This document shows positions 1,377 to 24,963 of a stretch of 24,963 bases of DNA, one piece after another. Source of the stretch: a virus. Taxonomy: Duplodnaviria; Caudoviricetes. The stretch is from positions 1 to 24,963 of the IMG/VR virus record IMGVR_UViG_3300035661_000315; one strand, written 5' to 3'. The position numbers were made by a program, and so were the translations under genes. Position 1 is the first letter of the stretch; each line of letters begins with the position of its first letter. The notes beneath the pieces were generated by a model, which saw nothing but the letters and a program-made list of their open reading frames with translations, did no database searches and was not told the DNA's origin.

Positions 1377-3545
1377 ATGACAAGAGAATTAGAAGTAGTC
1401 TTAAATGCATTAGTTCCAGATCATATAAAAGAAAATAATCCAGTAGTTTCTGAATTATTTAGAATATTTCTTGAATTTATTAATGAAACTTCATACGCCA
1501 AAGTTTCTAATCTATCAAATCTAGTAACTGCAATTCAAGAAGATGAAGCTGAAGATAAATCATCATTCAGTTATTATCCAGTTAACAAAAGAGAAAATAT
1601 AGAATTAAAAATGGCATTCGTAAATCTTTTTACTAATAATTTAAAAGATTTTTATGAAGTCATGAAAAATGATAAAGAAATAGACTCTAAATTAGAACAA
1701 TATGCAAGATTACTAGGTCTAGAAAAATCTGCATTGTATGATTTAACCAAGTTAAATGTAAACATTGATGAAGAAGTTATATCATGTTCTAAAAATTTAG
1801 CTCAAACAAAAGGTACAAATATACCATTTGATTTTTTATGTAACTTAATTGAAAATGAACAATTAGATCCTGGTATAGCGCCAATTGGAGATATAAAGGT
1901 TTTTGACCACAAAAACCCAGATACTGGAGAAGCTGAAGTATTGAAATATGAAGTAGAATCTTCTCTTCATAATGTAGTGTTCAATAAAGCTATAAAACCT
2001 TTGGTACATCCAGTTGGATTTGAAGTGATTTACACTAGAGTATTGAAATTATTAATTTCTGATTATTTCAACCTTAATGTAGAAAATTACGGATATAATG
2101 TTGTAGTAAAACAACAAAATGGAAGAACTTATAAATGGACTGATGTTTTAGATGCTTCTGGAAATGTAACTAATCAATCTATAAAAACATTCTCTTCTAA
2201 TATGAATGAATATGGAATAGAAGAATTGGACATACGTTTTATGTCCGGAGAACGTTTATATAGAATAGCTAATGGAGACCTGATTTATTATGATGTAAAC
2301 GGAACACCTCATAAATGGCCTAAAAAATATTATGATGTAGAGTATGCTTTCCGTAAAAGAATAACCGTTTTGACTAAAGATGTTAAAATAGATCATCATT
2401 GGAGCTATTGGACAGATGCATATGAAGTTTCTCATCGAAATGGAACTACTGTTATTGAATTTGTTAGAGATTATACCGAAAAAGTAGATCATATAGATGA
2501 TACTAAATCTTTAGAAGATGTCAAAGAATATACAGAGCCAATTTTAGTTACACATAATTCTATATTCAGACCAGAAGAATTTCCAGAGCCAACCGAATCA
2601 AAAACATTAGATATGACTAAATATATTTGGATGAATAATCCTAAATACATTGGAGTAGGTCCAAATGTTGGGACATTCAAATTAGGTGATCCAGTAAAAA
2701 TTAATGAAGATGAAGAGCAGTTCTGGGTAGATATGGATTATTATATCAAGTACTATCAAAAAGCTCTTGATGATGTAAAAGATGAATTATTAAAAAATAA
2801 AGATTTGTTATTCACTTATTCAACTAGAATTGGTAGACGTCGAATAGGAAGATGGTTAGGCGGTTCGGATCCAAGAAAAAAAGAAGATACCAGAGACGTC
2901 CCGAATTTGACAGGTGCTGCATTAAGAGCAAAAATAAGCTCATTGAAAAATGATATTTTTAGCAATGAAACAGATATAAAAACTATTGAAGATGCATTAT
3001 CCAAAGTTTATAGCGGCAGAGAAGAGTTTTACTTCATTGTAGAAGGGGAAACGTTAAAAGATGATTATATATTAAGTGAAAACATTGAAAAAACCGATAA
3101 TCATTTTTTAACAGACACTGGTCATATCACGGATGAATTGGTATCAACTACGATGTTGATTGATATGTCAAATGCAGATGGTATGACTTTAGGTTTAGAT
3201 GCTTTAGGTTCTAAACCTTTAGGATATGAAGATTCATTAGACACAGAAGATGGAGCTGGGATTTTCACTTATGTTAAAAATCAAGATGGTTCATTTTCTT
3301 TAGTTGATTATTTGAGCTTCATTGGTGATGCTATTACCTTGGACTCTGAAATTATTAGCGATTATAAAAGAATGATTTCTGAAATAGATTTAGATATCAC
3401 AGATATAACTATGAGAATAAATGAAATAGTTGGAATTTGGGGAGTATATGAACGAACCAAACTTCGATTGGAACGTGATGAAATGATAAAAACTAAACAA
3501 GCTATTCAAACAGAGTTAAATAATATCTTAAATAAATACAATTAA
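1377..3545 (+). CDS. Baseplate wedge subunit, T4 gp7-like (722 aa)
   Basis: Directly follows gp6, with RBS AAGGGGG. N-terminal 'P..I.E..P...E.F..F.E', 'KGT...F' and 'IKPLVHPVGF' motifs of gp7-like wedge proteins. Confidence 0.7.
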   Translation: MTRELEVVLNALVPDHIKENNPVVSELFRIFLEFINETSYAKVSNLSNLVTAIQEDEAEDKSSFSYYPVNKRENIELKMAFVNLFTNNLKDFYEVMKNDKEIDSKLEQYARLLGLEKSALYDLTKLNVNIDEEVISCSKNLAQTKGTNIPFDFLCNLIENEQLDPGIAPIGDIKVFDHKNPDTGEAEVLKYEVESSLHNVVFNKAIKPLVHPVGFEVIYTRVLKLLISDYFNLNVENYGYNVVVKQQNGRTYKWTDVLDASGNVTNQSIKTFSSNMNEYGIEELDIRFMSGERLYRIANGDLIYYDVNGTPHKWPKKYYDVEYAFRKRITVLTKDVKIDHHWSYWTDAYEVSHRNGTTVIEFVRDYTEKVDHIDDTKSLEDVKEYTEPILVTHNSIFRPEEFPEPTESKTLDMTKYIWMNNPKYIGVGPNVGTFKLGDPVKINEDEEQFWVDMDYYIKYYQKALDDVKDELLKNKDLLFTYSTRIGRRRIGRWLGGSDPRKKEDTRDVPNLTGAALRAKISSLKNDIFSNETDIKTIEDALSKVYSGREEFYFIVEGETLKDDYILSENIEKTDNHFLTDTGHITDELVSTTMLIDMSNADGMTLGLDALGSKPLGYEDSLDTEDGAGIFTYVKNQDGSFSLVDYLSFIGDAITLDSEIISDYKRMISEIDLDITDITMRINEIVGIWGVYERTKLRLERDEMIKTKQAIQTELNNILNKYN
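3531..3538 (+). promoter_or_regulatory. Possible T4-type late promoter (AATAAATA variant)
   Basis: One mismatch to TATAAATA, about 30 nt upstream of the 3567 start. AT-rich background lowers confidence. Confidence 0.35.
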
Positions 3546-4230: not shown

Positions 4231-5857
4231 GGATAGATTAGAATTATTAAAACAATTTTACCCAGATGGTGACATTTCTAAAAGATGTACCCAAGACACA
4301 TCTAAATATACTACATTTGAGATGGAGTTAAAAAATCTAACTCCATTTCTCCCTAACAATACCCCCTCACGTACTAGATTATTTTATATAAAATTAGATT
4401 TACACGAACCACAATTTTGCAATAATCCCTCGTGCAATAATCTAGTTTCACCTGATAGAAATAACAAATTCAAAACATATTGCTCAAATGAATGTCAGCG
4501 CACTTGTACCAATAATCTATTAAAATCAAATTCAAAGAAACACGAAGAATCCATTTTAAGAAAAGAATCTAATGTATGTAGATATTGCGGAAAACAATTA
4601 GTTTATGTTAGAAAAGAAAATAAGCACAGATGTACTAATTTTTTGTGTAAGGTTATTGAAAAATATTCACTTGATAGGAGTTTTCTTGAGATTGATAAGG
4701 TTAGTTCAAAATATCTACATAATTTATTGGATTTATTGAATATACCATATAATAAATCTTTAAATATATCTGAATTAAAATATTGCCTGAAAAATAATTT
4801 AACTACCCCTCCCGAGGGTTTTACAACTGAACATTTATATATTAAACAACAAGCTTTTATAGATAGACAGAAAAATAAACTACTAGATCACAATATATTG
4901 CTATCTAATAATTTTTTTCCTTATGAACTTCATTGCCAAACTTGCAAAAATGTATTTACTCATTCATTAAAGAATGTAACCTATAATCCATGCAAGATGT
5001 GTAATCCAAAACCATACGGGACATCGTATGCTGAATTAGAAGTTAAAGAATTTATAGAATCTTTAGGTTTTAGAACTGAAGCTAAAAGATTGCCAGGTGT
5101 AAATGAAATAGATATTTTTATACCTGAGTTAAATATAGGTTTTGAATATAATGGATTATATTGGCATTCAGAATCTATGGGAAAAGACAAAAATTACCAT
5201 TTAAACAAACAGAAAATAAGTGAAGAATTGGGAATAACATTATTTCATATATTTGAACATCATTGGTTGAATAAACAAGAAATAGTTAAATATAATTAAG
5301 TCTAAATTAAAAAAATTATCTACAAAATGTTATGCCCGTCAAGTCACTATAAAAGAAATACCTAATAATATCAAAAACGAATTTTTAGAAAATAATCATA
5401 TCCAAGGAAAAGATATATCATCTGTAAAGTTAGGGGCTTATTTAAAAGATGAGCTGGTGTCCGTAATGACATTCAAGAAATCCTCATATAAATCCGGAGA
5501 GATTGAACTATCTAGATTTTGCACTTTATTAGATTTCCATATCCCAGGAATGTTTAGTAAATTTTTATCATATTTTAAATTAAATTATGAATCAGAAAAT
5601 ATAATATCTTATGCTGATATATCTAGAAATCCTGGGAAAAAAGTTTATGAGGAGTTTTCTAAGAAATCGGAAATAACTCCTCCATCTTATTGGTATTTTA
5701 AAGATGGAGAGGTTTTTCATAGATCTACATTTATGAAACATAAACTAAAAAAAATTACTTGAAGTGTTTGATTCTGAGTTAACGGAATATGAAAATATGC
5801 TAAATAATGGATATGGATAGATATTGGGATTGTGGCACTATAAAATATTTCCTATAA
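4229..5857 (+). pseudogene. Hef-like homing endonuclease (Zn-ribbon N-terminus, Vsr/DUF559-like nuclease, C-terminal domain) with three frameshifts
   Basis: Cys pairs (CNNPSC, YCSNEC, CRYCG, CQTC, CKMC) and nuclease motif 'EIDIFIPELNIGFEYNGLYWHS'. Homology continues after shifts at ~5291 (IIKSKLKK...YARQ...NHIQG...ELSRFC...ISYAD), ~5754 (A8 run; LLEVFDSELTEYENM) and ~5815 (DRYWDCG...FL*), ending TAA 5855-5857. Merges tracked ORFs 4229..5299 and 5457..5762. Confidence 0.85.
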
Positions 5858-5885: not shown

Positions 5886-6941
5886 ATGCCGATTAACATA
5901 TCTCTTTTAAAAGAAGGCGATAAACGCCCAGACAATTTCAACACTCCTCTTATTCAGCTCAATCAAGGAAAAGAAGATAGAATTCCTTTTCCGGAAAAAT
6001 CCGGGCTAGTTTTAACTTCAGATATTAATGGTAATAAAACCTGGATTGAAAACATTAAATTAGGGAATACTAGCTCTACTGCTTTTAGAGGAGATTATGG
6101 TCAGATTGCATTCAATCATAGCCAATTACCTCACGATTATTATGCAAAAACTGGTGGCAAGATAACTGGTGATGTTGAAATAACCGGAACATTAACATTG
6201 AGTACCACAAATAAAATTCAAGCTGTATCTGCTGATACTGTAGTAACATCTAATGGGTTTTTGAAAGTGGTTGGATTAGGAATAAAATTAGATTCACCTA
6301 CGAATGATTTTACAATTCGTCCATATAATGGCGTAAATACTAAAGGAGTAGGTTTATACATCAACTCTGATTTATTTAGTTTCGGTAAATGGCAAGAAGG
6401 TCAAGGACCTCAAGATGAAATGGTTTTATTTTCTAGTATGCCTAAAGTTTATATCGGTGACCAAGTTAGAGCTCAAAACATTTCAGCACCTATAATTACT
6501 GCAGGTACATCTCAATTGGATAGTACTGGATTATCTATAGGGGGGCATAAAGTTATTGATTCTTCAGGAACAATATCAGGGGCTAATATTGATTTAGTTG
6601 CAGATTATGAATCTCCGTGGATATATGTATCTGGTGGTAATACTTTTTCAATACCACATAATTTAGGAATTAGACCTCGTTTTTATCAAATAGTTTTTTC
6701 ACATGATAATTCAAATTCAGATACTAAACAAGTGTTTACTATACCACATATTCAAACAACTGCTAATAATTATTGGTGGTATTGGTGGTACGGTTGGAAT
6801 GGTTATGGCGCCAATTGTTATACATTGGTAGAGTCTTACGATAATATACATTACTGGATAAGAACGGGAGATGGTGGAGTTTATACGAACGCAAACAATC
6901 GTTATAGTTCAGGTTATGTAAAAATAATGTTTTGGAAATAA
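5886..6941 (+). CDS. Tail fibre / receptor-binding protein (351 aa)
   Basis: Fibre motifs 'LGNTSSTAFRGDYG..A..HS', 'KTGGKITGDVEITG' and 'IGGHKVIDSSG'. C-terminal beta domain 'YESPW...F.IPHNLGIRP...GYVKIMFWK'. Followed by a chaperone-like gene. Confidence 0.75.
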   Translation: MPINISLLKEGDKRPDNFNTPLIQLNQGKEDRIPFPEKSGLVLTSDINGNKTWIENIKLGNTSSTAFRGDYGQIAFNHSQLPHDYYAKTGGKITGDVEITGTLTLSTTNKIQAVSADTVVTSNGFLKVVGLGIKLDSPTNDFTIRPYNGVNTKGVGLYINSDLFSFGKWQEGQGPQDEMVLFSSMPKVYIGDQVRAQNISAPIITAGTSQLDSTGLSIGGHKVIDSSGTISGANIDLVADYESPWIYVSGGNTFSIPHNLGIRPRFYQIVFSHDNSNSDTKQVFTIPHIQTTANNYWWYWWYGWNGYGANCYTLVESYDNIHYWIRTGDGGVYTNANNRYSSGYVKIMFWK

Positions 6942-8947: not shown

Positions 8948-9406
8948 ATGCCAACAAAAGCTAAATTAGAAAGGGTAGAGCAGCCAGATCTATCTGGATA
9001 TTTAACTACTGACCATTATAATCAGCTAGTTTCTATGATAAACGGAGCAAATGCTGCGGCTGCTCAGGCAGCCCAAGAGGCATCGAGGGCAGCTAGAGCA
9101 GCCGACGTAAAATACGGAACTGTCTCATCGGTAGGTCAATTAACCCCCGGAACTTATTCACACAATTTGGCTGCAATCACTGGTACAAGCGGTCCTGATT
9201 GGGTTTACTCAATGATAGTCACTTCTACTGGATCAACCGAAGCTACTCAAGGATATTCAAATACTGTAGTTGGAAATCCATCGTTTTCTTCACAGGTTTT
9301 CGGATCTACTGGAATCGTTACAATAACAGCTACAGCCGCTACAGGTTATAGAGCAAGACAAGCCTCATTATCTTATACAATTGCAGTTACTGCAAGACAC
9401 CCATAA
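8948..9406 (+). CDS. Short fibre-like/structural protein, Ala-rich helix plus Ser/Thr/Gly-rich beta domain (152 aa)
   Basis: RBS AAGGAG. Compositionally virion-like. No recognised family. Confidence 0.5.
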   Translation: MPTKAKLERVEQPDLSGYLTTDHYNQLVSMINGANAAAAQAAQEASRAARAADVKYGTVSSVGQLTPGTYSHNLAAITGTSGPDWVYSMIVTSTGSTEATQGYSNTVVGNPSFSSQVFGSTGIVTITATAATGYRARQASLSYTIAVTARHP

Positions 9407-9415
9407 AGGAAAATA

Positions 9416-10393
9416 ATGTTCAGTGTTGGATATACATCAGGAATTTCAGAAATTTTTGATATAATAGGTTATGATTTAGTCAATGATGTTTATTTCTCAA
9501 TAAATCATCATTTAACTAATTCTGCTAGAATTCAGGAATTCTCTCAAGAAATGCTTAATGAATTGATAAAAATTAAGTTCAATAATGTGAAGTTACATTT
9601 AGTAATGAATGGTTACACATACAATCAGCAAATTTATTTGGACGAAAATGTAGATGCTTTGATAAATATTATCGGAATGTTACCTATAGATATTTTAACA
9701 ATTAATAACACCATTTTATTGAAAGAGTTAAAAAATCGAGGATTATCAGAAAATATTGAAATAAAAAATTCTGTTAATAATAAATTAAAAACCTTAGAAG
9801 ATGTCATTACATATCATACATTTTTCAATATAAATTCTATTATGTTAGATAGATCTTTAAATAGAAATGAAGATGAATTATTAAAAATAATTGATTATTG
9901 TAAACTTAATAACATTAAAACTACTATTTTGTTAAATGAAGGTTGTATTCCAAATTGTCCTTATAAATCAGCATGTGATGAAAGCATTTCAAATAATCTT
10001 AATTCTGTTGTAAACAAAATTTCCAGATTGTCATGTGGAGGGGATTTTGATCTTAATCCATCTATAACATTAAAATCACCATTTGTAATTCCAGGTACTT
10101 TAAATAAATATAAAGATATGGGAGTAGATTATTTTAAAATAGCTTGTAGAGGAAAACCATTAAATGAAGTTTTTGATAGAATAAAAGCTTACTTTTTTGA
10201 TAACTTAAATATAAGTATTTTTAATTTAGTAGATACTAACCCAAACGGAATTTACAAAAGAATATTCACTCATCATTTAAATGACCATAATTTCTATGAG
10301 AAAACAAGAAATTGTAAAAATAAATGTCATGAATGTAATTATTGTGATATAATATATAAAACTATAGCTAAGGAAGTTTTGAAAAATGATTAA
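9416..10393 (+). CDS. Peptidase-U32-family (UbiU/TrhP/RlhA superfamily) Fe-S protein
   Basis: 'I.LDRSLNR....L..I', 'LLNEGC..NCP...AC', 'GVDYFKIACRGK' (cf. U32 LKIEGR.K) and a C-terminal CxxxCxxCxxC (CKNKCHECNYC). Confidence 0.75.
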   Translation: MFSVGYTSGISEIFDIIGYDLVNDVYFSINHHLTNSARIQEFSQEMLNELIKIKFNNVKLHLVMNGYTYNQQIYLDENVDALINIIGMLPIDILTINNTILLKELKNRGLSENIEIKNSVNNKLKTLEDVITYHTFFNINSIMLDRSLNRNEDELLKIIDYCKLNNIKTTILLNEGCIPNCPYKSACDESISNNLNSVVNKISRLSCGGDFDLNPSITLKSPFVIPGTLNKYKDMGVDYFKIACRGKPLNEVFDRIKAYFFDNLNISIFNLVDTNPNGIYKRIFTHHLNDHNFYEKTRNCKNKCHECNYCDIIYKTIAKEVLKND

Positions 10394-17861: not shown

Positions 17862-17990
17862 TTACAGAAAATTATTTGAATTATCTTTTATATTACTTTC
17901 TTTAAAAAATAATATATTATCTTAAATTTTATCTAACCCTAAGGCAGATGTATCATTAAATGTTACTAATGATTGTTTTATATAACTCAT
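17862..17990 (-). pseudogene. Relic of a fourth propeller-protein paralogue (N-terminal domain only)
   Basis: Reads MSYIKQSLVTFNDTSALGLDKI*DNILFFKESN..., aligning with MSFERQSLVVFKDESSTGINFV (21389) and VFKDETSTGLDKI (19069). Starts with the same ATGA stop/start overlap. In-frame TAA at 17922-17924. Confidence 0.75.
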
Positions 17991-19069
17991 AATGATGCTC
18001 CTGCTAGGTAATATCTAGCTGTACCTACATTAGTTTCTGCTTGAACTAAAGTAGCTGTTGAAGATAATAGAGTAGCTGTTTTCACAGCTACGTGAGAGCT
18101 AGTTCCCGTATCTCCACCATAGAATAATGCATTAGTTCCTACATTAGCTCCTGCTAATTCATATCTAGCTGAACCTATATTGGTTTCTGCTTGAACTAAA
18201 GTAGCTGTTGGTGATAATAGAGTCGTGGTAGATATTATGTTATTGCCATATCCACCGTAGAATAAAGCATTAGTTCCCACGTTAGATCCTGATAATCCAT
18301 ATCTAGCTGTACCTATATTGGTTTCTGCTTGAACTAAAGTAGCTGTTGAAGATAATAGAGTAGCTGTTGGTATAGCTCCTGAAAGGGCAAATCCACCGTA
18401 GAATAAAGCATTAGTTCCTACATTAGCTCCTGATAATCCATATCTAGCTACACCTACATTTGTTTCGGCTTGCACTAATGTAGCTGTTGAAGATAATAGA
18501 GTAGCTGTGGAAACAGCTGTTGTTGAACCCCATCCAGCATAAAATAAAGCATTTGTACCTACTTTTGCTCCTGCTACTTCACGTCTAGCTGTACCTACAT
18601 TTGTTTCTGCCTGAACCAAAGTAGCGGTTGGTGATAATAAAGTAGCTGTGGAAACAGCTGTTGTTGATATCCACCCACCGTAGAATAAAGCATTAGTTCC
18701 CACGTTAGATCCTGATAATCCATATCTAGCTGTACCTATATTGGTTTCTGCTTGAACTAAAGTAGCTGTTGAAGATAATAGAGTCGTGGTAGCCACAACG
18801 GTTGATATCCACCCCCCATAGAACAAAGCTTTGGTAAAAGAGGTTGTTACCTTAAATGTATAAGGTAATAATCCAGTAGCTGAACCAACTTGTGTGCTAC
18901 TAGTGACTCCAACTTTACTAACACATTGATATAGTAATTTGTTGGATTTAATAGCGACAATCTCTCCTACTGGAATCTTATCTAACCCAGTTGAAGTTTC
19001 ATCCTTAAACACCCATATAGGGTTTCTGGTAAATCCAGAAATTTGAGACTGAGACTGTGATGCCCCCAT
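17987..19069 (-). CDS. Six-bladed Kelch-like beta-propeller protein A (360 aa)
   Basis: Short N-terminal domain plus six 46-49 aa repeats ALFYGG-[variable]-TATLLSxTATLVQAETNxGTAR-[variable]-GANVGTN. Hydrophobic-GG and R spacing is Kelch-like. Confidence 0.8.
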   Translation of the reverse strand: MGASQSQSQISGFTRNPIWVFKDETSTGLDKIPVGEIVAIKSNKLLYQCVSKVGVTSSTQVGSATGLLPYTFKVTTSFTKALFYGGWISTVVATTTLLSSTATLVQAETNIGTARYGLSGSNVGTNALFYGGWISTTAVSTATLLSPTATLVQAETNVGTARREVAGAKVGTNALFYAGWGSTTAVSTATLLSSTATLVQAETNVGVARYGLSGANVGTNALFYGGFALSGAIPTATLLSSTATLVQAETNIGTARYGLSGSNVGTNALFYGGYGNNIISTTTLLSPTATLVQAETNIGSARYELAGANVGTNALFYGGDTGTSSHVAVKTATLLSSTATLVQAETNVGTARYYLAGASL

Positions 19070-19599: not shown

Positions 19600-20238
19600 T
19601 TAGTTTCCTTGTGTTAGTAATTTGGTTATACTTAGAGTCTCTTGAACACTTAGTGGTATGTTATTAAGGTTAATACCATTTGCTATTAAATTAGCTTTGT
19701 TCTCATCAGTATCAGGTAGCATCATTGCTGTGGCTGTATTTAACAACTGTACACGCATTTGAGGTATTCTCATAGCTTCTTCAGCGGTTGCTTGAGAAAT
19801 ACCTAAGGTTCTTGCCACTTGTTCTGTTTCAATTTTTTTAAGGTTTCTTAAATAAACCTCTGTTTCCATATTTATTTGGTACATTTCATCATCTGATTTA
19901 CCTTCTATACGAGACTGTTCAGCAATTGATGCTAATTCCGCTTCATACTTTAACAAGAAAGCAAGTTCATCATCAAGCTTTTTATAACCATCTGTTTGCT
20001 GTTCTTGATGAGCTTCAAATTCTTCTAACTCTGCTTGAGCAAATAATCTTTCTGATTCTTTAGTAGCTTCTTGAACTTTAGCAATGTATGCTTGATGTTT
20101 TAGTTCTTGTGTAGTTTGTAATTTTTTTGCAATTTTTCTATCCTCAATAAAATTACGAACTATTCTTAATCTCTCCCAAATTGTCTCTCCATTAATAAGG
20201 TTAAGATATGCATATTGTGAATTTACTTGTGATGCCAT
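19600..20238 (-). CDS. Hypothetical helical/coiled-coil protein (212 aa)
   Basis: Intact Glu/Gln/Lys-rich helical ORF with its own late promoter at 20268-20275. Confidence 0.75.
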   Translation of the reverse strand: MASQVNSQYAYLNLINGETIWERLRIVRNFIEDRKIAKKLQTTQELKHQAYIAKVQEATKESERLFAQAELEEFEAHQEQQTDGYKKLDDELAFLLKYEAELASIAEQSRIEGKSDDEMYQINMETEVYLRNLKKIETEQVARTLGISQATAEEAMRIPQMRVQLLNTATAMMLPDTDENKANLIANGINLNNIPLSVQETLSITKLLTQGN

Positions 20239-20267
20239 TTTTACTCTTCTTTCATATTATATTTTAA

Positions 20268-20275
20268 TATTTATA
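20268..20275 (-). promoter_or_regulatory. T4-type late promoter TATAAATA
   Basis: TATTTATA on the plus strand, overlapping the stop of propeller B, 30 nt upstream of ATG 20238. Confidence 0.7.
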
Positions 20276-21389
20276 AACTAGATCCTGCGAGTCCATGTCT
20301 AGGTGTACTACCTATATTAGTTTCTGCTTGAACTAAAGTAGCTGTTGGCGATAATAATGTAGCAGTATTTAATTTAACACTATTAGCCCCAGCATAATAT
20401 AAAGCATTTGTACCTACGTTAGCTCCTGCTGGTCCAAGTCTAGTAGAACCAACATTTGATTCAGCTTGTACCAAAGTAGCTGTTGATGATAACAGTGTTG
20501 CTGTATTTAAGTATGAACCATTATACCCACCGTAGAATAAAGCATTCGTACCAACATTAGCTCCAGCAGTATATGACCGTGCTGTGCCAACATTTGATTC
20601 CGCTTGTACCAAAGTAGCTGTTGATGATAACAGTGTTGCTGTATTAAAATATGAACCATTTGTTCCACCATAAAATAATACATTTGTACCAACATTGGCT
20701 CCACCCGTTCCAGTTCTCACTGTTCCTACAGTTGACTCAGCTTGAACCAATGAACCAGTAGGTGTCAATATTGTTGCCGTATTCTTATATCCAGAATTGT
20801 ACCCAGCATAGAATAGTGCATTTGTACCAACATTTGCTCCAGATATATAACTTCTTCCTGACCCAACAGTAGACTCAGCTTGAACCAATGTCGCAGTTGG
20901 TGATAATAATGTAACTGTGTTGTAATAATAAGAATTATCTGTTCCGCCATAAAATAATGCATTTGTACCAACATTGGCTCCTGCTACGCCAAATTTTGCT
21001 GTACCTACTGAAGTTTCTGCTTGAACTAAAGTAGCCGTTGAAGATAACAATGTGGTTGTTGATACACTTGTTGGTGAACTATCTATCCCATTATGAAATA
21101 AAGCTTTGGTAAAACTAGTTGACGTTGTTGTAGTAGTTGTTGTCGTTGTTGTCGTTGTTGTCGTTGTTGTCGTTGTTGGTGGAGCAGGAATAACTCCAGT
21201 TATTAAAATTAAATTTGCACCTGAAATTGCTTGTGCTATGGTGGTATTGGTAGTGATATTAGTTGAATTAACTTTAATATACATATATCCAGTTGAGTTC
21301 ACAAATACAAATCTATTATTTGCAACAAAGTTTATTCCAGTTGATGACTCATCTTTAAAAACAACAAGAGACTGTCTTTCAAAACTCAT
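20271..21389 (-). CDS. Six-bladed Kelch-like beta-propeller protein B with poly-Thr linker (372 aa)
   Basis: Same N-terminal domain and six repeats as protein A. PP-T18-STS linker. Confidence 0.8.
   Translation of the reverse strand: MSFERQSLVVFKDESSTGINFVANNRFVFVNSTGYMYIKVNSTNITTNTTIAQAISGANLILITGVIPAPPTTTTTTTTTTTTTTTTTTSTSFTKALFHNGIDSSPTSVSTTTLLSSTATLVQAETSVGTAKFGVAGANVGTNALFYGGTDNSYYYNTVTLLSPTATLVQAESTVGSGRSYISGANVGTNALFYAGYNSGYKNTATILTPTGSLVQAESTVGTVRTGTGGANVGTNVLFYGGTNGSYFNTATLLSSTATLVQAESNVGTARSYTAGANVGTNALFYGGYNGSYLNTATLLSSTATLVQAESNVGSTRLGPAGANVGTNALYYAGANSVKLNTATLLSPTATLVQAETNIGSTPRHGLAGSSL
21123..21176 (-). repeat. Thr-codon tandem repeat (18 Thr)
   Basis: Four perfect copies of TGTCGTTGT at 21141-21176 plus degenerate copies. 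Confidence 0.9.
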
Positions 21390-22429
21390 ATTAATGCTCC
21401 TCCTAAGTAATGACGGCCTGATGTTCCAACATTAGTCTCTGGCTGTACTAATGTTGCGGTAGGTGATAGTAGTGTAGTAGTATTGATAAATGTTGTTGAT
21501 GCATCATTACACCCAGCATAAAATAGGGCATTTGTACCAACATTAACTCCAGAATTTGACCATTTTACTGATCCAACACTTGTTTCAGCTTGTAATAAAA
21601 CAGCCGTCGGTGATAACAAAGTAGTTGTATTGAGAACAGTGGGCCAGATTTGTATTCCACCATAAAATAAAGCATTCGTACCAACATTTGCTCCTGCTAG
21701 GCCAAATCTAGCTGTACCTATATTAGTAGACTGAGATACTAAGACGCCCAATGGAGATACTACAGAAGCTGTATTATAGCTTCCATAATTAGCTCCACCA
21801 TAAAATAAAGCATTTGTACCTACGTTAGCTCCAGCTAATGAGTACATAGATGTTCCAAGATTTGTTTCAGCTTGAACTAATGTAGCTGTTGGTGATAGTA
21901 ATGTTACGGTATCTACCCCATAATAGCTTGAATCAACGGCACCACCGTAAAATAAAGCATTTGTACCAACCTTAGCCCCAGCTGGGGTAGCCCTAGCTGT
22001 ACCTACATTAGTCTCTGATTGTACTAAATTAATTGTTGGTGATAATAAAGTAGTGGTAGATACATATGTTGTAGTATATCCACCATAAAATAAAGCATTT
22101 GTACCTACGTTAGCTCCAGCTAATCCATATCTAGCTGTACCTACACTCTTTTCAGCTTGAACTAATGTAGCCGTTGCTGATAGCATGGTAGCTAAATTTA
22201 GATTTATATTATTACTACCGCCATAAAACAATGCTCCACTTATAACAAGACTAGCGATTAATACTTTACCTACTACATCACAAAATTGTGTAGTAGATGA
22301 TACGTTTGTTTTATTTGTTAATAAAAAAATATCACCAGTATCTTTATTTAATATTAATGAATTAATAGGAATTACATCTATGCCGGTTGATGTACAATTT
22401 TTTACTACTACTATTGAATTTTCATACAT
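21386..22429 (-). CDS. Six-bladed Kelch-like beta-propeller protein C (347 aa)
   Basis: Same architecture and six repeats. ATGA overlap with protein B. Confidence 0.8.
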   Translation of the reverse strand: MYENSIVVVKNCTSTGIDVIPINSLILNKDTGDIFLLTNKTNVSSTTQFCDVVGKVLIASLVISGALFYGGSNNINLNLATMLSATATLVQAEKSVGTARYGLAGANVGTNALFYGGYTTTYVSTTTLLSPTINLVQSETNVGTARATPAGAKVGTNALFYGGAVDSSYYGVDTVTLLSPTATLVQAETNLGTSMYSLAGANVGTNALFYGGANYGSYNTASVVSPLGVLVSQSTNIGTARFGLAGANVGTNALFYGGIQIWPTVLNTTTLLSPTAVLLQAETSVGSVKWSNSGVNVGTNALFYAGCNDASTTFINTTTLLSPTATLVQPETNVGTSGRHYLGGALI

Positions 22430-22438
22430 TAATAATCC

Positions 22439-22768
22439 TTATGCAATTACTACAGTTTCGTTAAGAACCCTAGCATCTAAAAAGGTTATTGATGTTGCAC
22501 CAGGTGTGAATGTATAACTCAAATCTTTTGTTTGAAGAACACCGTTTAGATAAACCATTGGGTCAACTAAAACTGCACCAGCATTAAATACAGTTTGTCC
22601 GTCTGTTGCTACGAATTTGTATTTAGTTGTACTTACGCCTGATAAAGCATTCATAACGAATTCTGTAGTAGCTAATTTAAGTGAACTATCCCCTTTAGTA
22701 GCTGTAGGTGCTGTTGGAATAGATGTAAAATTAGTTACACCCATTGTAGAATTTAAAACTGTAGTCAT
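22439..22768 (-). CDS. Small virion structural/fibre-like protein (109 aa)
   Basis: Fibre motif 'PTAPTA..GD.S..LATTEFV' plus 'F.ATDGQTVF...VYLNGVLQ...Y......ITF' beta module. Confidence 0.65.
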   Translation of the reverse strand: MTTVLNSTMGVTNFTSIPTAPTATKGDSSLKLATTEFVMNALSGVSTTKYKFVATDGQTVFNAGAVLVDPMVYLNGVLQTKDLSYTFTPGATSITFLDARVLNETVVIA

Positions 22769-22779
22769 TATTTATCTCC

Positions 22780-23409
22780 TTATCCTAAATCTCCAAATAC
22801 AGAATCTCTAGGAGCTGTATATGTTGTAGTTTCTACTTCTTGTTCTTCTTTCTGACCGTTAAAGACGGAATCTAAATTTGAAAAATCATACTCACTAGGA
22901 TCTACAATTTCTGGAACCTTGTCTGATGGTTTATAATTGTATATGTTACATTTTAACATTAATACATTTTTTCCGTTATTTGATGTGAATATATTGCTCA
23001 ACCCGGGAACTTCATCTTCAACACCTGTTACTTCAAATAATTTTCCTCTAGGAGTTTTTATAATATCTCCCACTGATTGAAATGCATTTTTAAAATCGGT
23101 TAAGTCATATATGTCTTTAAATGTTTCTGTGCTTACAATCAAATTAATCGTATCCGTAATCTGCATACCAAACTTGCTAAATAAATCACCAGCGTTGTCA
23201 AATGCTTCTACATTCTCTGGATACATCATAATTGAAAAAACATTATTGGGATTAGATTCTTTGTATGTATATTCTTGAAAAACAGTATTTTTGCCTTTAT
23301 TGGTTATCTTGAAATAACTCAATTGGACGCCATATATATCAATTAATTCTTTAGATTGGTTTCGATGTAATATATATTCATTGGTTTTATTATTCAAGTT
23401 CCAAGCCAT
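22780..23409 (-). CDS. gp14: Neck protein, T4 gp14-like
   Basis: 'E.I.IYG....Y', 'F...GDLFSKFG.QI.D...L.VS...F', 'GD.I', 'LFEV..VE' and 'LKC..Y.Y'. Confidence 0.85.
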   Translation of the reverse strand: MAWNLNNKTNEYILHRNQSKELIDIYGVQLSYFKITNKGKNTVFQEYTYKESNPNNVFSIMMYPENVEAFDNAGDLFSKFGMQITDTINLIVSTETFKDIYDLTDFKNAFQSVGDIIKTPRGKLFEVTGVEDEVPGLSNIFTSNNGKNVLMLKCNIYNYKPSDKVPEIVDPSEYDFSNLDSVFNGQKEEQEVETTTYTAPRDSVFGDLG

Positions 23410-23427
23410 ACTCCCTCCTTTTTGTTT

Positions 23428-23435
23428 TATTTATA
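23428..23435 (-). promoter_or_regulatory. T4-type late promoter TATAAATA (gp14/propeller operon)
   Basis: TATTTATA on the plus strand, upstream of RBS AAGGAGG and ATG 23409. Confidence 0.75.
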
Positions 23436-23440
23436 AGATT

Positions 23441-23462
23441 TTAAGGTAAGTGCTGATATAAT
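23441..23462 (+). promoter_or_regulatory. Host sigma70-type early promoter
   Basis: TTAAG-N8-TG-A-TATAAT. Confidence 0.75.
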
Positions 23463-23491
23463 AACATAATTTAAAATAAGAAGGAAACAAA

Positions 23492-23878
23492 ATGTTAACA
23501 GCGACATTGGATAATACAAGATTTAAACACTTTCAATTTGAAGGTAATAAAGGCGGTGTCACCTTGGGATGGATGTACAATGATGATTCATTGTTTCTGG
23601 CATGTTCAGTCTGCTCAAGCAAAGATATGTTTTCAAAAAAAGTAGGACGTGAACTTGTATTAGAACGTTTAAATGAAGAAGTAAATGAAAACACAAGCAA
23701 GTTCAGCGCTACAATTTCTTTAGAAGAAATAAAAGAATATTTGGCAAACAATATTGATTTGTCGTTTCCAACACTTACTAAGAATAAAGCCTTAGACGTT
23801 ATTGAACAATTGGAATTGAAAGATCTTAACTATAATTTGTATGCTAAAATTGCAACGGACGTATTTTTCAAACAATAA
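23492..23878 (+). CDS. Hypothetical early protein (128 aa) with C-x3-D-x-F-x4-G-R motif
   Basis: RBS AAGGA and its own early promoter. Sequence 'GGVTL...ACSVCSSKDMFSKKVGRELVLERL'. Confidence 0.75.
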   Translation: MLTATLDNTRFKHFQFEGNKGGVTLGWMYNDDSLFLACSVCSSKDMFSKKVGRELVLERLNEEVNENTSKFSATISLEEIKEYLANNIDLSFPTLTKNKALDVIEQLELKDLNYNLYAKIATDVFFKQ

Positions 23879-23913
23879 ATAAAAGAAAAAGATTTGTATC
23901 ATTTAATGTTATT

Positions 23914-23935
23914 TTAAGGTAACATATGATATAAT
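23914..23935 (+). promoter_or_regulatory. Host sigma70-type promoter of the leader ORF/tRNA array
   Basis: TTAAG-N8-TG-A-TATAAT, near-duplicate of 23441-23462. Confidence 0.75.
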
Positions 23936-23969
23936 AACAACATATAAAAAGAAACATAGGAGAAACAAA

Positions 23970-24095
23970 ATGATTTACACAATGTACTCAACAGTAAATG
24001 TAATATCATATACATCAGTAAACACATCTGATTATACCTATGCCTACTCTATTTCTGAAACGGATGCGATTGCATCGGAGACAGATATTATCTAA
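23970..24095 (+). CDS. 41-aa leader ORF upstream of the tRNA array (not in ORF track)
   Basis: RBS AGGAG at 23958-23962. Translates as MIYTMYSTVNVISYTSVNTSDYTYAYSISETDAIASETDII*. Confidence 0.65.
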   Translation: MIYTMYSTVNVISYTSVNTSDYTYAYSISETDAIASETDII

Positions 24096-24256
24096 TCTGA
24101 AAGTCATTTATGTCTTTCAGAAATGAAAGACATTGAATGAATCCTCAGTCCATTCGGACAAATTCAATCAATTATTTCATTTTAAGTACAATATAACGCG
24201 AGTTTATTGTGTTCTGAATTAGCAGTCTTTTACGAGAGTTTACTTAAAACTTCTCA
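24096..24256 (+). ncRNA. Structured RNA element/leader between leader ORF and first tRNA
   Basis: ATGTCTTTCA-GAAA-TGAAAGACAT, competing TCTGAAAG/CTTTCAGA, GTCC-ATTC-GGAC, ACAATA.AAC-GCGA-GTT.TATTGT, and a UACG-capped stem. Confidence 0.45.
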
Positions 24257-24262
24257 AAGAAT

Positions 24263-24351
24263 GGTCAGTTAATCAACACTAACTGGATAGGTGCACCGGC
24301 TGTAACCCGGTTTCGTAAGGACTCTTGGTTCGACTCCAAGACTGACCACCA
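24263..24351 (+). tRNA. trnY: tRNA-Tyr(GTA), atypical D region
   Basis: Acceptor GGTCAGT/ACTGACC-A-CCA, anticodon arm ACCGG-CTGTAAC-CCGGT, long variable arm, T arm CTTGG-TTCGACT-CCAAG. Confidence 0.85.
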
Positions 24352-24361
24352 ATTGTTAAAT

Positions 24362-24437
24362 GACACTATGGAGAAATAGGTTATCTTATATCCCTTTCAA
24401 GGATATGTTACGGGTTCGAGCCCCGTTAGTGTTACCA
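24362..24437 (+). tRNA. trnE: tRNA-Glu(TTC)
   Basis: GACACTA/TAGTGTT-A-CCA, TATCC-CTTTCAA-GGATA, ACGGG-TTCGAGC-CCCGT. Confidence 0.9.
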
Positions 24438-24449
24438 AAAATTTAAAAT

Positions 24450-24521
24450 GGTCTCATCGTATAGTGGTTATTATATGTGGTTGTCAGCCATGAGATCGGG
24501 GTTCAATTCCCCGTGGGACCG
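24450..24521 (+). tRNA. trnD: tRNA-Asp(GTC), no encoded CCA
   Basis: GGTCTCA/TGGGACC-G, TGTGG-TTGTCAG-CCATG, CGGGG-TTCAATT-CCCCG. Confidence 0.85.
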
Positions 24522-24570
24522 GACGTTCAAGAATTAGCTTTCACGTAGCGAACGTTGTAAGTACCTTAAA

Positions 24571-24677
24571 TGGGAAACTAATAATTCAATGTTGAAATAA
24601 GAAAATAAAGAAAAAGAATCTTTTCCTGAATATGAAAAAATTTAGGTTGTCTTAAGGGTCGTAAAAATGAAATTTAA
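24571..24677 (+). pseudogene. Possible decayed 3' end of a Seg-like homing endonuclease
   Basis: With several frameshifts reads W.TNN..VE.KKIKK.ESFPEYEK.LGCLKGRK.MKF, resembling the W..NG..NK.......Y...GW..GR tail of phage Seg-like endonucleases. Confidence 0.4.
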
Positions 24678-24681
24678 AAAT

Positions 24682-24758
24682 GGGGAATTAGTATATTAGG
24701 TTGATTACTCTACGCTTGCAACGTAGGAAGACGGGAGCGTAACCCGTATTCTCCACCA
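24682..24758 (+). tRNA. trnA: tRNA-Ala(TGC)
   Basis: GGGGAAT/ATTCTCC-A-CCA with the G3:U70 identity pair, CTACG-CTTGCAA-CGTAG, non-canonical T loop AGCGTAA. Confidence 0.88.
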
Positions 24759-24769
24759 ATAATTTAAAT

Positions 24770-24844
24770 GATCTTGTAGCTCAGAGGCAGAGTGCTCCGT
24801 TGTCAGCGGAAGGGTCGGGATTTCAAAATTCCTCAAGATCGCCA
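24770..24844 (+). tRNA. trnD: tRNA-Asp(GTC), second copy
   Basis: GATCTTG/CAAGATC-G-CCA, TCCG-TTGTCAG-CGGA, weak T arm GGGAT-TTCAAAA-TTCCT. Confidence 0.8.
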
Positions 24845-24852
24845 AAACAAAT

Positions 24853-24926
24853 AGTTCTATAGCTCAATGGCAGAGTAATCCCTTGATAAGGGATAGACGA
24901 AGGGTCAGTACCTTCTAGAACTACCA
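24853..24926 (+). tRNA. trnI: tRNA-Ile(GAT)
   Basis: AGTTCTA/TAGAACT-A-CCA, ATCCC-TTGATAA-GGGAT, GAAGG-GTCAGTA-CCTTC. Confidence 0.88.
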
Positions 24927-24931
24927 AACAT

Positions 24932-24963
24932 GGGCAATTGGCAGAAATGGAATAATTGCACTA
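24932..24963 (+). tRNA. tRNA, truncated by window end (isotype unknown)
   Basis: GGGCAAT-TG-GCA-GAAATGGAATAAT-TGC-A-CTA gives the 5' acceptor strand and D arm, with the same spacing as the preceding tRNAs. Confidence 0.65.

Follow-up and report, generated by a model that had tools for sequence, protein, structure and literature searches.

A short open reading frame (ORF) and the RNA directly behind it very probably constitute a translation-sensing leader for a block of phage tRNA genes, located at the 3' end of the 24,963-nucleotide stretch of viral DNA analysed here (hereafter the window). The coupling of a codon-matched leader to a two-state RNA, which lay at the core of the original prediction of a leader-peptide attenuator ahead of the tRNA array, is borne out by a second unit in the same phage, by the orthologous units of another phage, by variation among strains and by base changes that preserve pairing. 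The arrangement is real and conserved, a variant of ribosome-mediated attenuation with phage tRNA blocks as its target and an inferred output step. We put the chances at about even that finishing the ORF leads to a Rho-dependent stop and that slow decoding leads to read-through into the tRNA block, both the output and the direction being putative.

The window covers head and tail genes of a T4-like phage, with identified terminase, portal, major head and head-closure genes, and its capsid protein is 48–51% identical to those of Vibrio phage Va1 (51%) and Campylobacter CP220-type phages. It is identical, across the 7372 bases compared, to three IMG/VR contigs that run past its end; positions beyond that end are given in the coordinates of a window-type phage contig, L001. 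The comparisons sampled two independent phage lineages, i.e. the window phage and a relative (L010/L014) with a capsid 79% identical to it, plus near strains in the form of contigs, which were used for strain variants only; the anchoring of helices was manual. A Campylobacterota bacterium is the likely host, and the three best of five genome hits for a small c-type cytochrome encoded by the related phage (L017 16064–16339) are from Sulfurospirillum, Arcobacteraceae and Campylobacter, all Campylobacterota. The window also carries, on its minus strand, three paralogous repeat proteins in which an ALFYGG-type unit recurs (17987–19069, 20271–21389 and 21386–22429), one of them with a poly-Thr run, which probably belong to the fibres or the baseplate. 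The motif TTAAG-N10-12-TATAAT precedes many genes and tRNA blocks in the window phage and its relatives, and is similar to the -35/-10 promoter words described for C. jejuni, with a shorter spacer in the phage (PMC3824568).

The leader opens with one copy of this recurrent promoter motif, an extended -10 form reading TTAAG-N11-TATAAT (23914..23935, + strand); that pattern has three sites in the window versus none for a reversed-pattern control. A scan for E. coli sigma-70 promoters does not list the site, and its count was at chance level (23 vs. 24). A Shine-Dalgarno sequence, AGGAGA (23958..23963, + strand), stands 6 nt ahead of the ATG, within 11 nt that are identical in the relative, and is followed by leader ORF 1 with its 41 codons (23970..24095, + strand), which is listed as a gene in the protein collection; the relative conserves the whole promoter, ribosome binding site (RBS) and short-ORF arrangement. 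These elements lie where the original prediction had placed them, and the peptide composition is as it described: 10 amino-acid types, six Tyr, six Ile, and no Lys, Leu or Phe, with 15 of the last 21 codons specifying Tyr, Glu, Asp, Ala or Ile, a figure that rises to 21 of 21 once Ser and Thr are included. A search of cultured phages gave no match to the leader, the 17 records hit being tRNA-length pieces; PHROG holds no family for either window-type leader peptide; and at the Rfam gathering score only tRNAs pass in 23400–24963 and L001 6300–12384, leaving the leader without a family.

Block 1 starts, all on the + strand, with tRNA-Tyr (GTA; 24267..24351), tRNA-Glu (TTC; 24362..24437), tRNA-Asp (GTC; 24449..24522), tRNA-Ala (TGC; 24682..24758), a second tRNA-Asp (GTC; 24770..24844), tRNA-Ile (GAT; 24853..24926) and the 5' part of tRNA-Ser (TGA; 24932..24963), which is truncated by the window end. 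The array does continue beyond the window, as had been suspected: the identical contigs add Thr, Tyr, Ile, Met, Ile(TAT) and Tyr past the tRNA-Ser, for 13 genes in total (Tyr x3, Glu, Asp x2, Ala, Ile(GAT) x2, Ile(TAT), Ser(TGA), Thr and Met), 11 of which were called by default ARAGORN and two by relaxed calls plus Rfam. Farther on, at L001 9412–10945, there is a second unit with promoter, RBS, leader, switchable hairpin and tRNA block, in which a promoter at 9412 and an RBS precede a 47-codon ORF (9500–9643) rich in Asn, Leu, Gln and Val, followed by 12 tRNA genes (Asn x2, Val, Cys, Gly x2, Leu x4, Gln and Trp). The relative has both units in the same places, with a 45-codon ORF before Tyr, Glu, Ala, Asp, Ile, Ser and Thr genes, and a 56-codon ORF before Asn, Gln, Leu, Gly, Val, Cys-like, Ser(GCT) and Trp genes (unit 2 at L014 17255–20533).

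Several other features were noted in and around these blocks. A conserved tRNA-shaped RNA, called by neither ARAGORN nor Rfam, closes block 1 in both phages (L001 ~9250–9332, L014 17013–17096); that of the relative adopts a cloverleaf in which a loop of 13 nt replaces the anticodon loop, and the RNA is possibly a decoy. An unusual tRNA-Ser(GCT) with an atypical T arm, missed by default ARAGORN, is common to two distant phages (L014 20268–20358, L019 ~6725–6810). The tRNA blocks of both phages are immediately followed by an RNase H-like DUF458 gene (L001 11116–11568, L014 20566–21024), which is also found near the arrays of L019 and Va1. Insertions within the blocks include a 295-aa gene of unknown function (L001 7911–8798) and HNH-like ORFs, recognized by eye (L014 17860–18692 and 19520–20293), and in near strains the tRNA blocks are rearranged while the leader ahead of them is unchanged. 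Repeats with a CAGCAA core in hairpins occur near orphan tRNAs (L006 341–4142, minus strand, five elements; L017 11808–17039, at least five) and have no Rfam match at the gathering score. Finally, long ORF-free, GC-richer stretches, which are candidate unlisted non-coding RNAs, lie behind promoters or ahead of tRNA-Arg (L006 ~1900–2800, minus strand; L001 11840–11990 and L017 8580–8720, the L001/L017 stretch being shared and conserved by the two phages).

Each leader matches the block behind it. Codons decoded by the leader's own block number 35 of 40 and 33 of 46 in units 1 and 2 of the window phage, and 37 of 44 and 43 of 55 in the relative, where 18.3, 15.7, 19.4 and 19.7, respectively, would be expected (the ORF 1 expectation was computed from 24 window genes). 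The last 23 codons of ORF 1 all match, and its remaining five non-matching codons belong to block 2, so that none belongs to neither block (8.0 expected); in ORF 2, 11 codons belong to block 1. Among gene windows of equal length drawn from the 24 window genes, none of 6404 reaches 35 matches (maximum 30), and none of 6260 reaches the ORF 2 score. The match is specific to the reading frame, since frames +1 and +2 of ORF 1 give 12 of 39 block matches each, with three and two stops. Swapping between blocks gave p = 5e-9 for the window phage and p = 6e-12 for the relative, where the isotype set of the relative's block 2 leaves out an Ile(TAT)-like gene whose acceptor stem is broken. Because relaxed ARAGORN misread genes of the relative (a Val(TAC) gene was placed in another register, and a second Asn and a degenerate Cys gene were missed), the swap test was rerun with default-ARAGORN isotypes only, giving p = 1e-8 and 2e-9. 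Random isotype sets equalled the score of unit 1 in 7 of 100,000 draws, and when the phage's own isotypes were re-dealt between blocks the joint score was reached 19 and 22 times per 100,000.

The correspondence appears to reach the level of the codon box. Six of the nine Ser codons in the relative's ORF 2 are AGY, and its block 2 carries tRNA-Ser(GCT), which was not found in the scanned 25 kb of the window-type phage; in the other three leaders, whose blocks are without this tRNA, 2 of 21 Ser codons are AGY (p = 0.003). This Ser-AGY link, read from sequence comparison, rests on one gain or loss event. A corresponding link between ATA codons and tRNA-Ile(TAT) was dropped, the numbers (1 of 6 vs. 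0 of 6 Ile codons) being too small, and codon diversity within ORF 1 was not above background (21 vs. 18.4, p = 0.09). Two near-strain changes speak against block tuning, namely an Ile to Asn replacement (one of four non-synonymous ORF 1 changes) and an inserted Ile codon in ORF 2, both of which leave the own-block set.

The two peptides differ in how well they are conserved. Peptide 1 is only 31% identical across the two phages, versus 64% for the neighbouring head-closure protein, and keeps its composition; its homologue P0012 has 38 of 44 residues in the set, including 27 of the last 28. The ORF 2 peptides, of which three further homologues were collected (P0013–P0015), are 64–82% identical with invariant positions, a conservation that exceeds what a pure codon gauge would need and leaves room for a peptide role. 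A reading in which the peptides themselves act, through nascent-chain stalling or as small proteins, or in which the ORF is a constitutive ribosome-loaded leader with hairpins that serve processing and with tRNA levels unsensed, would account for this ORF 2 family and for the calling of all five leaders as genes. We consider it improbable: ORF 1 retains composition at 31% identity, the leader peptides lack a PHROG family, and neither the block-specific composition nor the link between Ser-AGY codons and tRNA-Ser(GCT) is predicted by it.

Variation in the near strains respects the frame. ORF 1 has up to five substitutions (four non-synonymous, i.e. Thr to Ile twice, Val to Ala and the Ile to Asn change above, and one synonymous) and a 3-nt in-frame insertion, and the ORF 2 insertion is also of 3 nt; the listed indels outside both ORFs are of 1–2 nt, and the leaders stay in frame across 3-nt indels and changes of length, which suggests that they are translated. 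The 136 nt after the ORF 1 stop (to 24231) have a single substitution, at 24145, in an unpaired bulge. Between the window phage and the relative, 33 of 33 base pairs in five motif-anchored helices are kept, with seven double and two single changes, a count that leaves out two rows of five pairs each for the middle 3:4 stem; that stem is present in both phages in a shifted register, and one of five pairs is broken in the positionally homologous register. Short ORFs and hairpins are common in AT-rich intergenic DNA, and 30 ORFs of at least 20 aa lie in the last 2 kb of the window; nevertheless, a chance coincidence of the two is scarcely credible here, given four leaders in two phages that each match their own block, frames that survive 3-nt indels, and pairs that covary. 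Searches for more distant copies returned few sequences. The 17-nt tRNA-Tyr pattern gave eight hits in viral contigs, five from the two known phages and three chance hits without a tRNA; the head-closure protein alignment had no matches in metagenome or genome contigs; of 22 metagenome hits to a degenerate helix 1:2 pattern, none had an ORF followed by an array; and the ORF 2 alignment retrieved only the known relative from viral contigs. Four of five more distant phage records, and three of four loci in a further set, were without tRNAs.

Downstream of the stop, four RNA segments (all + strand) can pair in alternative ways. Segment 1 (24096..24103), directly 3' of the stop, pairs with segment 2 in what we call state A and is masked by a ribosome on the last codons; segment 2 with its 5' extension (24104..24121) pairs with segment 1 in state A or with segment 3 (24122..24142) in state B, and segment 3 pairs with segment 4 in state A. 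An unpaired CCUCA bulge and a 4-bp apical hairpin (24143..24159) are present in both states. Segment 4, a C/U-rich tract (24160..24185), is buried in state A and freed in state B, and is a candidate Rho loading or nuclease site; the spacer hairpins between the switch and the first tRNA (24187..24260) are not switched by the ribosome. Compensatory changes are spread over these helices: helix 1:2 keeps 8 of 8 pairs in the relative (two double changes), the 2:3 core 9 of 9 (two double), the 2:3 extension 5 of 5 (one single) and the apical hairpin 4 of 4 (two double). Helices 1:2 (24096–24103/24114–24121, -9.6 kcal/mol) and 2:3 (24110–24119/24124–24133, -11.3 kcal/mol) exist as originally described, the latter extending in state B to a hairpin of 24104–24140. 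The 3:4 register first proposed (24132–24138 with 24162–24168) is complementary, but its probability is at most 0.01 in every ensemble; the populated 3:4 structure is a 60-nt hairpin (24122–24181, -15.2 kcal/mol) whose bottom stem buries the U-rich tract. Leader features exceed chance (z = -3.41), and none of 1000 dinucleotide shuffles folds as well as the post-stop 90-mer. The region 24141–24185 has a C/G ratio of 3.3 and 60% pyrimidine, with a YC count in the top 0.3% of coding windows; the freed tract of the relative has a C/G ratio of 4.0, and the tract is 60–63% pyrimidine in the two phages.

Folding with ribosome-masked segments predicts a switch governed by ribosome position. With a ribosome 3–8 codons upstream, helix 1:2 and the long 3:4 hairpin form (~0.9); a ribosome still farther upstream, or none at all, gives a mixed ensemble (1:2 at 0.17–0.72; 0.38–0.65 for the window sequence without a ribosome); and with the ribosome on the last 1–2 codons or the stop, the extended 2:3 hairpin reaches ~0.93, while the unpaired fraction of 24160–24185 goes from 0.37–0.39 in state A to 0.76–0.89 in state B. 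The relative has the same switch in a less sharp form (2:3 at 0.61–0.88; tract unpaired 0.36–0.40 to 0.55–0.62), with state B at the stop only 0.62–0.64 and lost when the ribosome edge is set at +12. At transcript lengths 24140–24172 the 2:3 hairpin stands at 0.93–0.94 with or without a ribosome, so the switch discriminates only once segment 4 has been made. In unit 2, the probability of the strong post-stop hairpin climbs from 0.02 to 1.0 when the ribosome approaches the last codons of the ORF (transcript to L001 9714), and the unit 2 switch of the relative is less clean. State-dependent pairing of segment 4 with the first tRNA was considered as well, and was not seen in folding.

Two more distant phages carry leaders of similar build. 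In Va1, an unannotated 53-codon ORF with 19 amino-acid types (MK387337.2 ~189329–189651; L074 9330–9652) has an end that pairs over 19 bp with the 5' arm of a U7-tailed hairpin, in the manner of an antiterminator and a terminator, ahead of a tRNA-Met-like gene and a near-complete tRNA array; in the folding model this arm is released when a ribosome occupies the last four codons. The element is 97.6–100% identical in six cultured Vibrio phages, and a further promoter-like site, seen by eye, lies between it and the main array. The distant phage L019 has the same promoter style, then a 46-codon leader with 17 amino acids and a 20-tRNA array (4369–4661 for the leader region); a long terminator-like hairpin spans its leader stop, and elsewhere in the same phage (19651–20109) a GOLLD RNA (191 bits) adjoins a second tRNA group. 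Because near-complete arrays follow, neither of these leaders can test codon matching. In folding models, the unit 2 hairpin and the Va1 analogue support a direction in which slow decoding turns the block on, while the L019 hairpin hints at the opposite, in that a finishing ribosome would block it.

How the two states are read out is the point on which alternatives divide. The attenuator layout originally proposed is partly upheld: mutually exclusive 1:2, 2:3 and 3:4 helices are real and conserved, whereas the classical wiring is not there. A trp-type attenuator, in which an intrinsic 3:4 terminator ends transcription and stalling frees 2:3, is therefore improbable, and ranks above only a chance origin, in spite of its matching topology. 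Segment 1 lies outside the ORF, so stalling at control codons cannot mask it; the 3:4 register it relied on is unpopulated; and terminator-like sites are absent from window positions 20000–24963 and from the + strand of either window-type leader, in line with the caveat, attached to the prediction from the start, that 3:4 is not a textbook terminator. Since 2:3 stands at 0.93–0.94 while the U tract is transcribed, an intrinsic 3:4 terminator is unlikely, the upper 3:4 stem at length 24172 amounting to at most 0.05 in the window phage and at most 0.23 in the relative. The ribosome-position switch itself was recovered, but its direction is the reverse of trp, phe and his. Keeping the classical labels (3:4 stop, 2:3 go) yields an inverted attenuator, in which finishing the ORF gives a 2:3 antiterminator and the block is made only if its amino acids are chargeable, avoiding uncharged tRNA and a stringent response. 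The L019 hairpin overlapping the leader stop and a 9/10 U run 3' of the upper 3:4 stem in the relative are consistent with this scheme; we give it only a slim chance, with the upper 3:4 stem so rarely formed during U-tract transcription in both phages, 3:4 stems that are A-U-rich, and Va1 and unit 2 pointing the opposite way.

The claim that stalling switches the tRNA supply on would hold only with 2:3 as the off state, read out by way of Rho or of processing. In our preferred mechanism, the leader ORF, whose amino acids are those of the tRNA block that follows, would act as a sensor of ribosome speed. On completing the ORF, a ribosome would cover segment 1, the extended 2:3 hairpin would form, and 24160–24185 would be left single-stranded; this state B would load Rho, and, in the manner of Salmonella mgtA and corA, transcription would halt before the tRNA block or soon after entering it. 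Were Tyr, Ser, Thr, Ile, Asp, Glu or Ala tRNAs scarce, cleaved or poorly charged, the ribosome would be delayed and state A favoured, which would bury the tract, so that transcription would reach the block and the missing tRNAs would be supplied. Unit 2 would apply the same logic to Asn, Leu, Gln, Val, Gly, Cys and Trp. Rho was chosen as the output because the tract is C/U-rich, the likely host is of the runaway type, and mgtA and corA upstream ORFs (uORFs) unmask a Rho site. Campylobacterota are counted among the bacteria with runaway transcription, and in B. subtilis, which was the runaway species examined in that source, Rho terminates RNA rich in C and U (PMC13323073). Against this mechanism, the exposed tract of ~45 nt is short for a Rho site.

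Runaway transcription also weakens ribosome-polymerase coupling, which favours a post-transcriptional output from the same sensor: the exposed AU/C-rich strand would be cut by an endonuclease, or a stalled ribosome would shield the 5' end from 5'-3' decay, so that tRNA maturation, and not synthesis, would be tuned. No coupling is needed for this, which suits a runaway host; the states differ only after segment 4 exists, and the full leader is still switchable; and the leaders lack terminator-like sites. A 5'-3' RNase J occurs in Campylobacterota, and stalled ribosomes protect RNA. On the other hand, cutting the leader would not obviously destroy tRNAs that are cut out anyway, and the Va1 analogue ends in a U7-tailed hairpin, i.e. 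a transcription signal. We regard this processing output as unlikely, though more probable than any other alternative. As for the Rho-gated mechanism in its fullest form, it is conceivable, at somewhat less than even odds, that Campylobacterota phages use a multi-channel tRNA gauge, with a terminator-less, Rho-gated leader per block that mirrors its codons and is retuned down to the codon box as a tRNA is gained by the block (Ser-AGY alongside tRNA-Ser(GCT)), such that only the matching block would be transcribed upon loss of host tRNAs to a defence nuclease or starvation.

Among known systems, the nearest are the Salmonella mgtA and corA leaders, where a Rho site becomes accessible if the uORF is translated efficiently and stays masked if the ribosome stalls (PMC12360218). 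As described there, mgtA (mgtL), corA (corL) and the tufB leader share with the phage a short ORF, a leader refolded by translation, a Rho-resistant fold upon stalling and no need of an intrinsic terminator. Unlike them, the phage leader is a sensor of ~40 codons for 7–8 amino acids that mirrors a tRNA block, it targets phage tRNA genes through two parallel units with complementary codon sets, and its involvement of Rho is a supposition. Amino-acid operon attenuators likewise have a promoter, RBS, short ORF rich in cognate codons and mutually exclusive 1:2/2:3/3:4 helices, and in pheL a ribosome at the stop favours the 3:4 terminator; relative to that account, segment 1 of the phage follows the stop, finishing favours 2:3, a hairpin plus U run is absent, and tRNAs rather than biosynthetic enzymes are controlled (PMC3082878). 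Because two defining tests fail (segment 1 placement and intrinsic terminator), we do not file it as a classical attenuator. The thr and ilv leaders are multivalent. At about even odds, the phage leader combines uORF attenuation of the mgtA/corA type with the multivalent codon reading of the amino-acid leaders. In Anabaena, the trn operon is a silent tRNA array that translational stress turns on via TrcR, and differs in that, in the scheme reported, a ribbon-helix-helix repressor acts at initiation on the whole array without a codon-matched leader (PMC10272220). Leader-ORF control of tRNA arrays was not found in full-text searches of open-access literature; subscription papers or supplements could hold a case.

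Why phages carry tRNA arrays has been an open question for more than 50 years, and phage tRNAs have been proposed as a counter-defence to tRNA nucleases (PMC10264068). That proposal offers a purpose for on-demand supply, and, as set out there, concerns tRNA sequence and choice, not expression control (PMC10264068). A leader that mirrors its block implies that the tRNAs would be a regulated, on-demand response to the loss of specific tRNAs, beyond codon-usage padding, and the model accounts for arrays that are sorted into isotype blocks. It would add tRNA genes to the amino-acid and ion genes under ribosome-mediated attenuation, and would place such control in a phylum thought to lack tight transcription-translation coupling. 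The question of why phages carry tRNA arrays could be addressed with a small reporter, and the Va1 analogue is a counterpart in a cultured phage.
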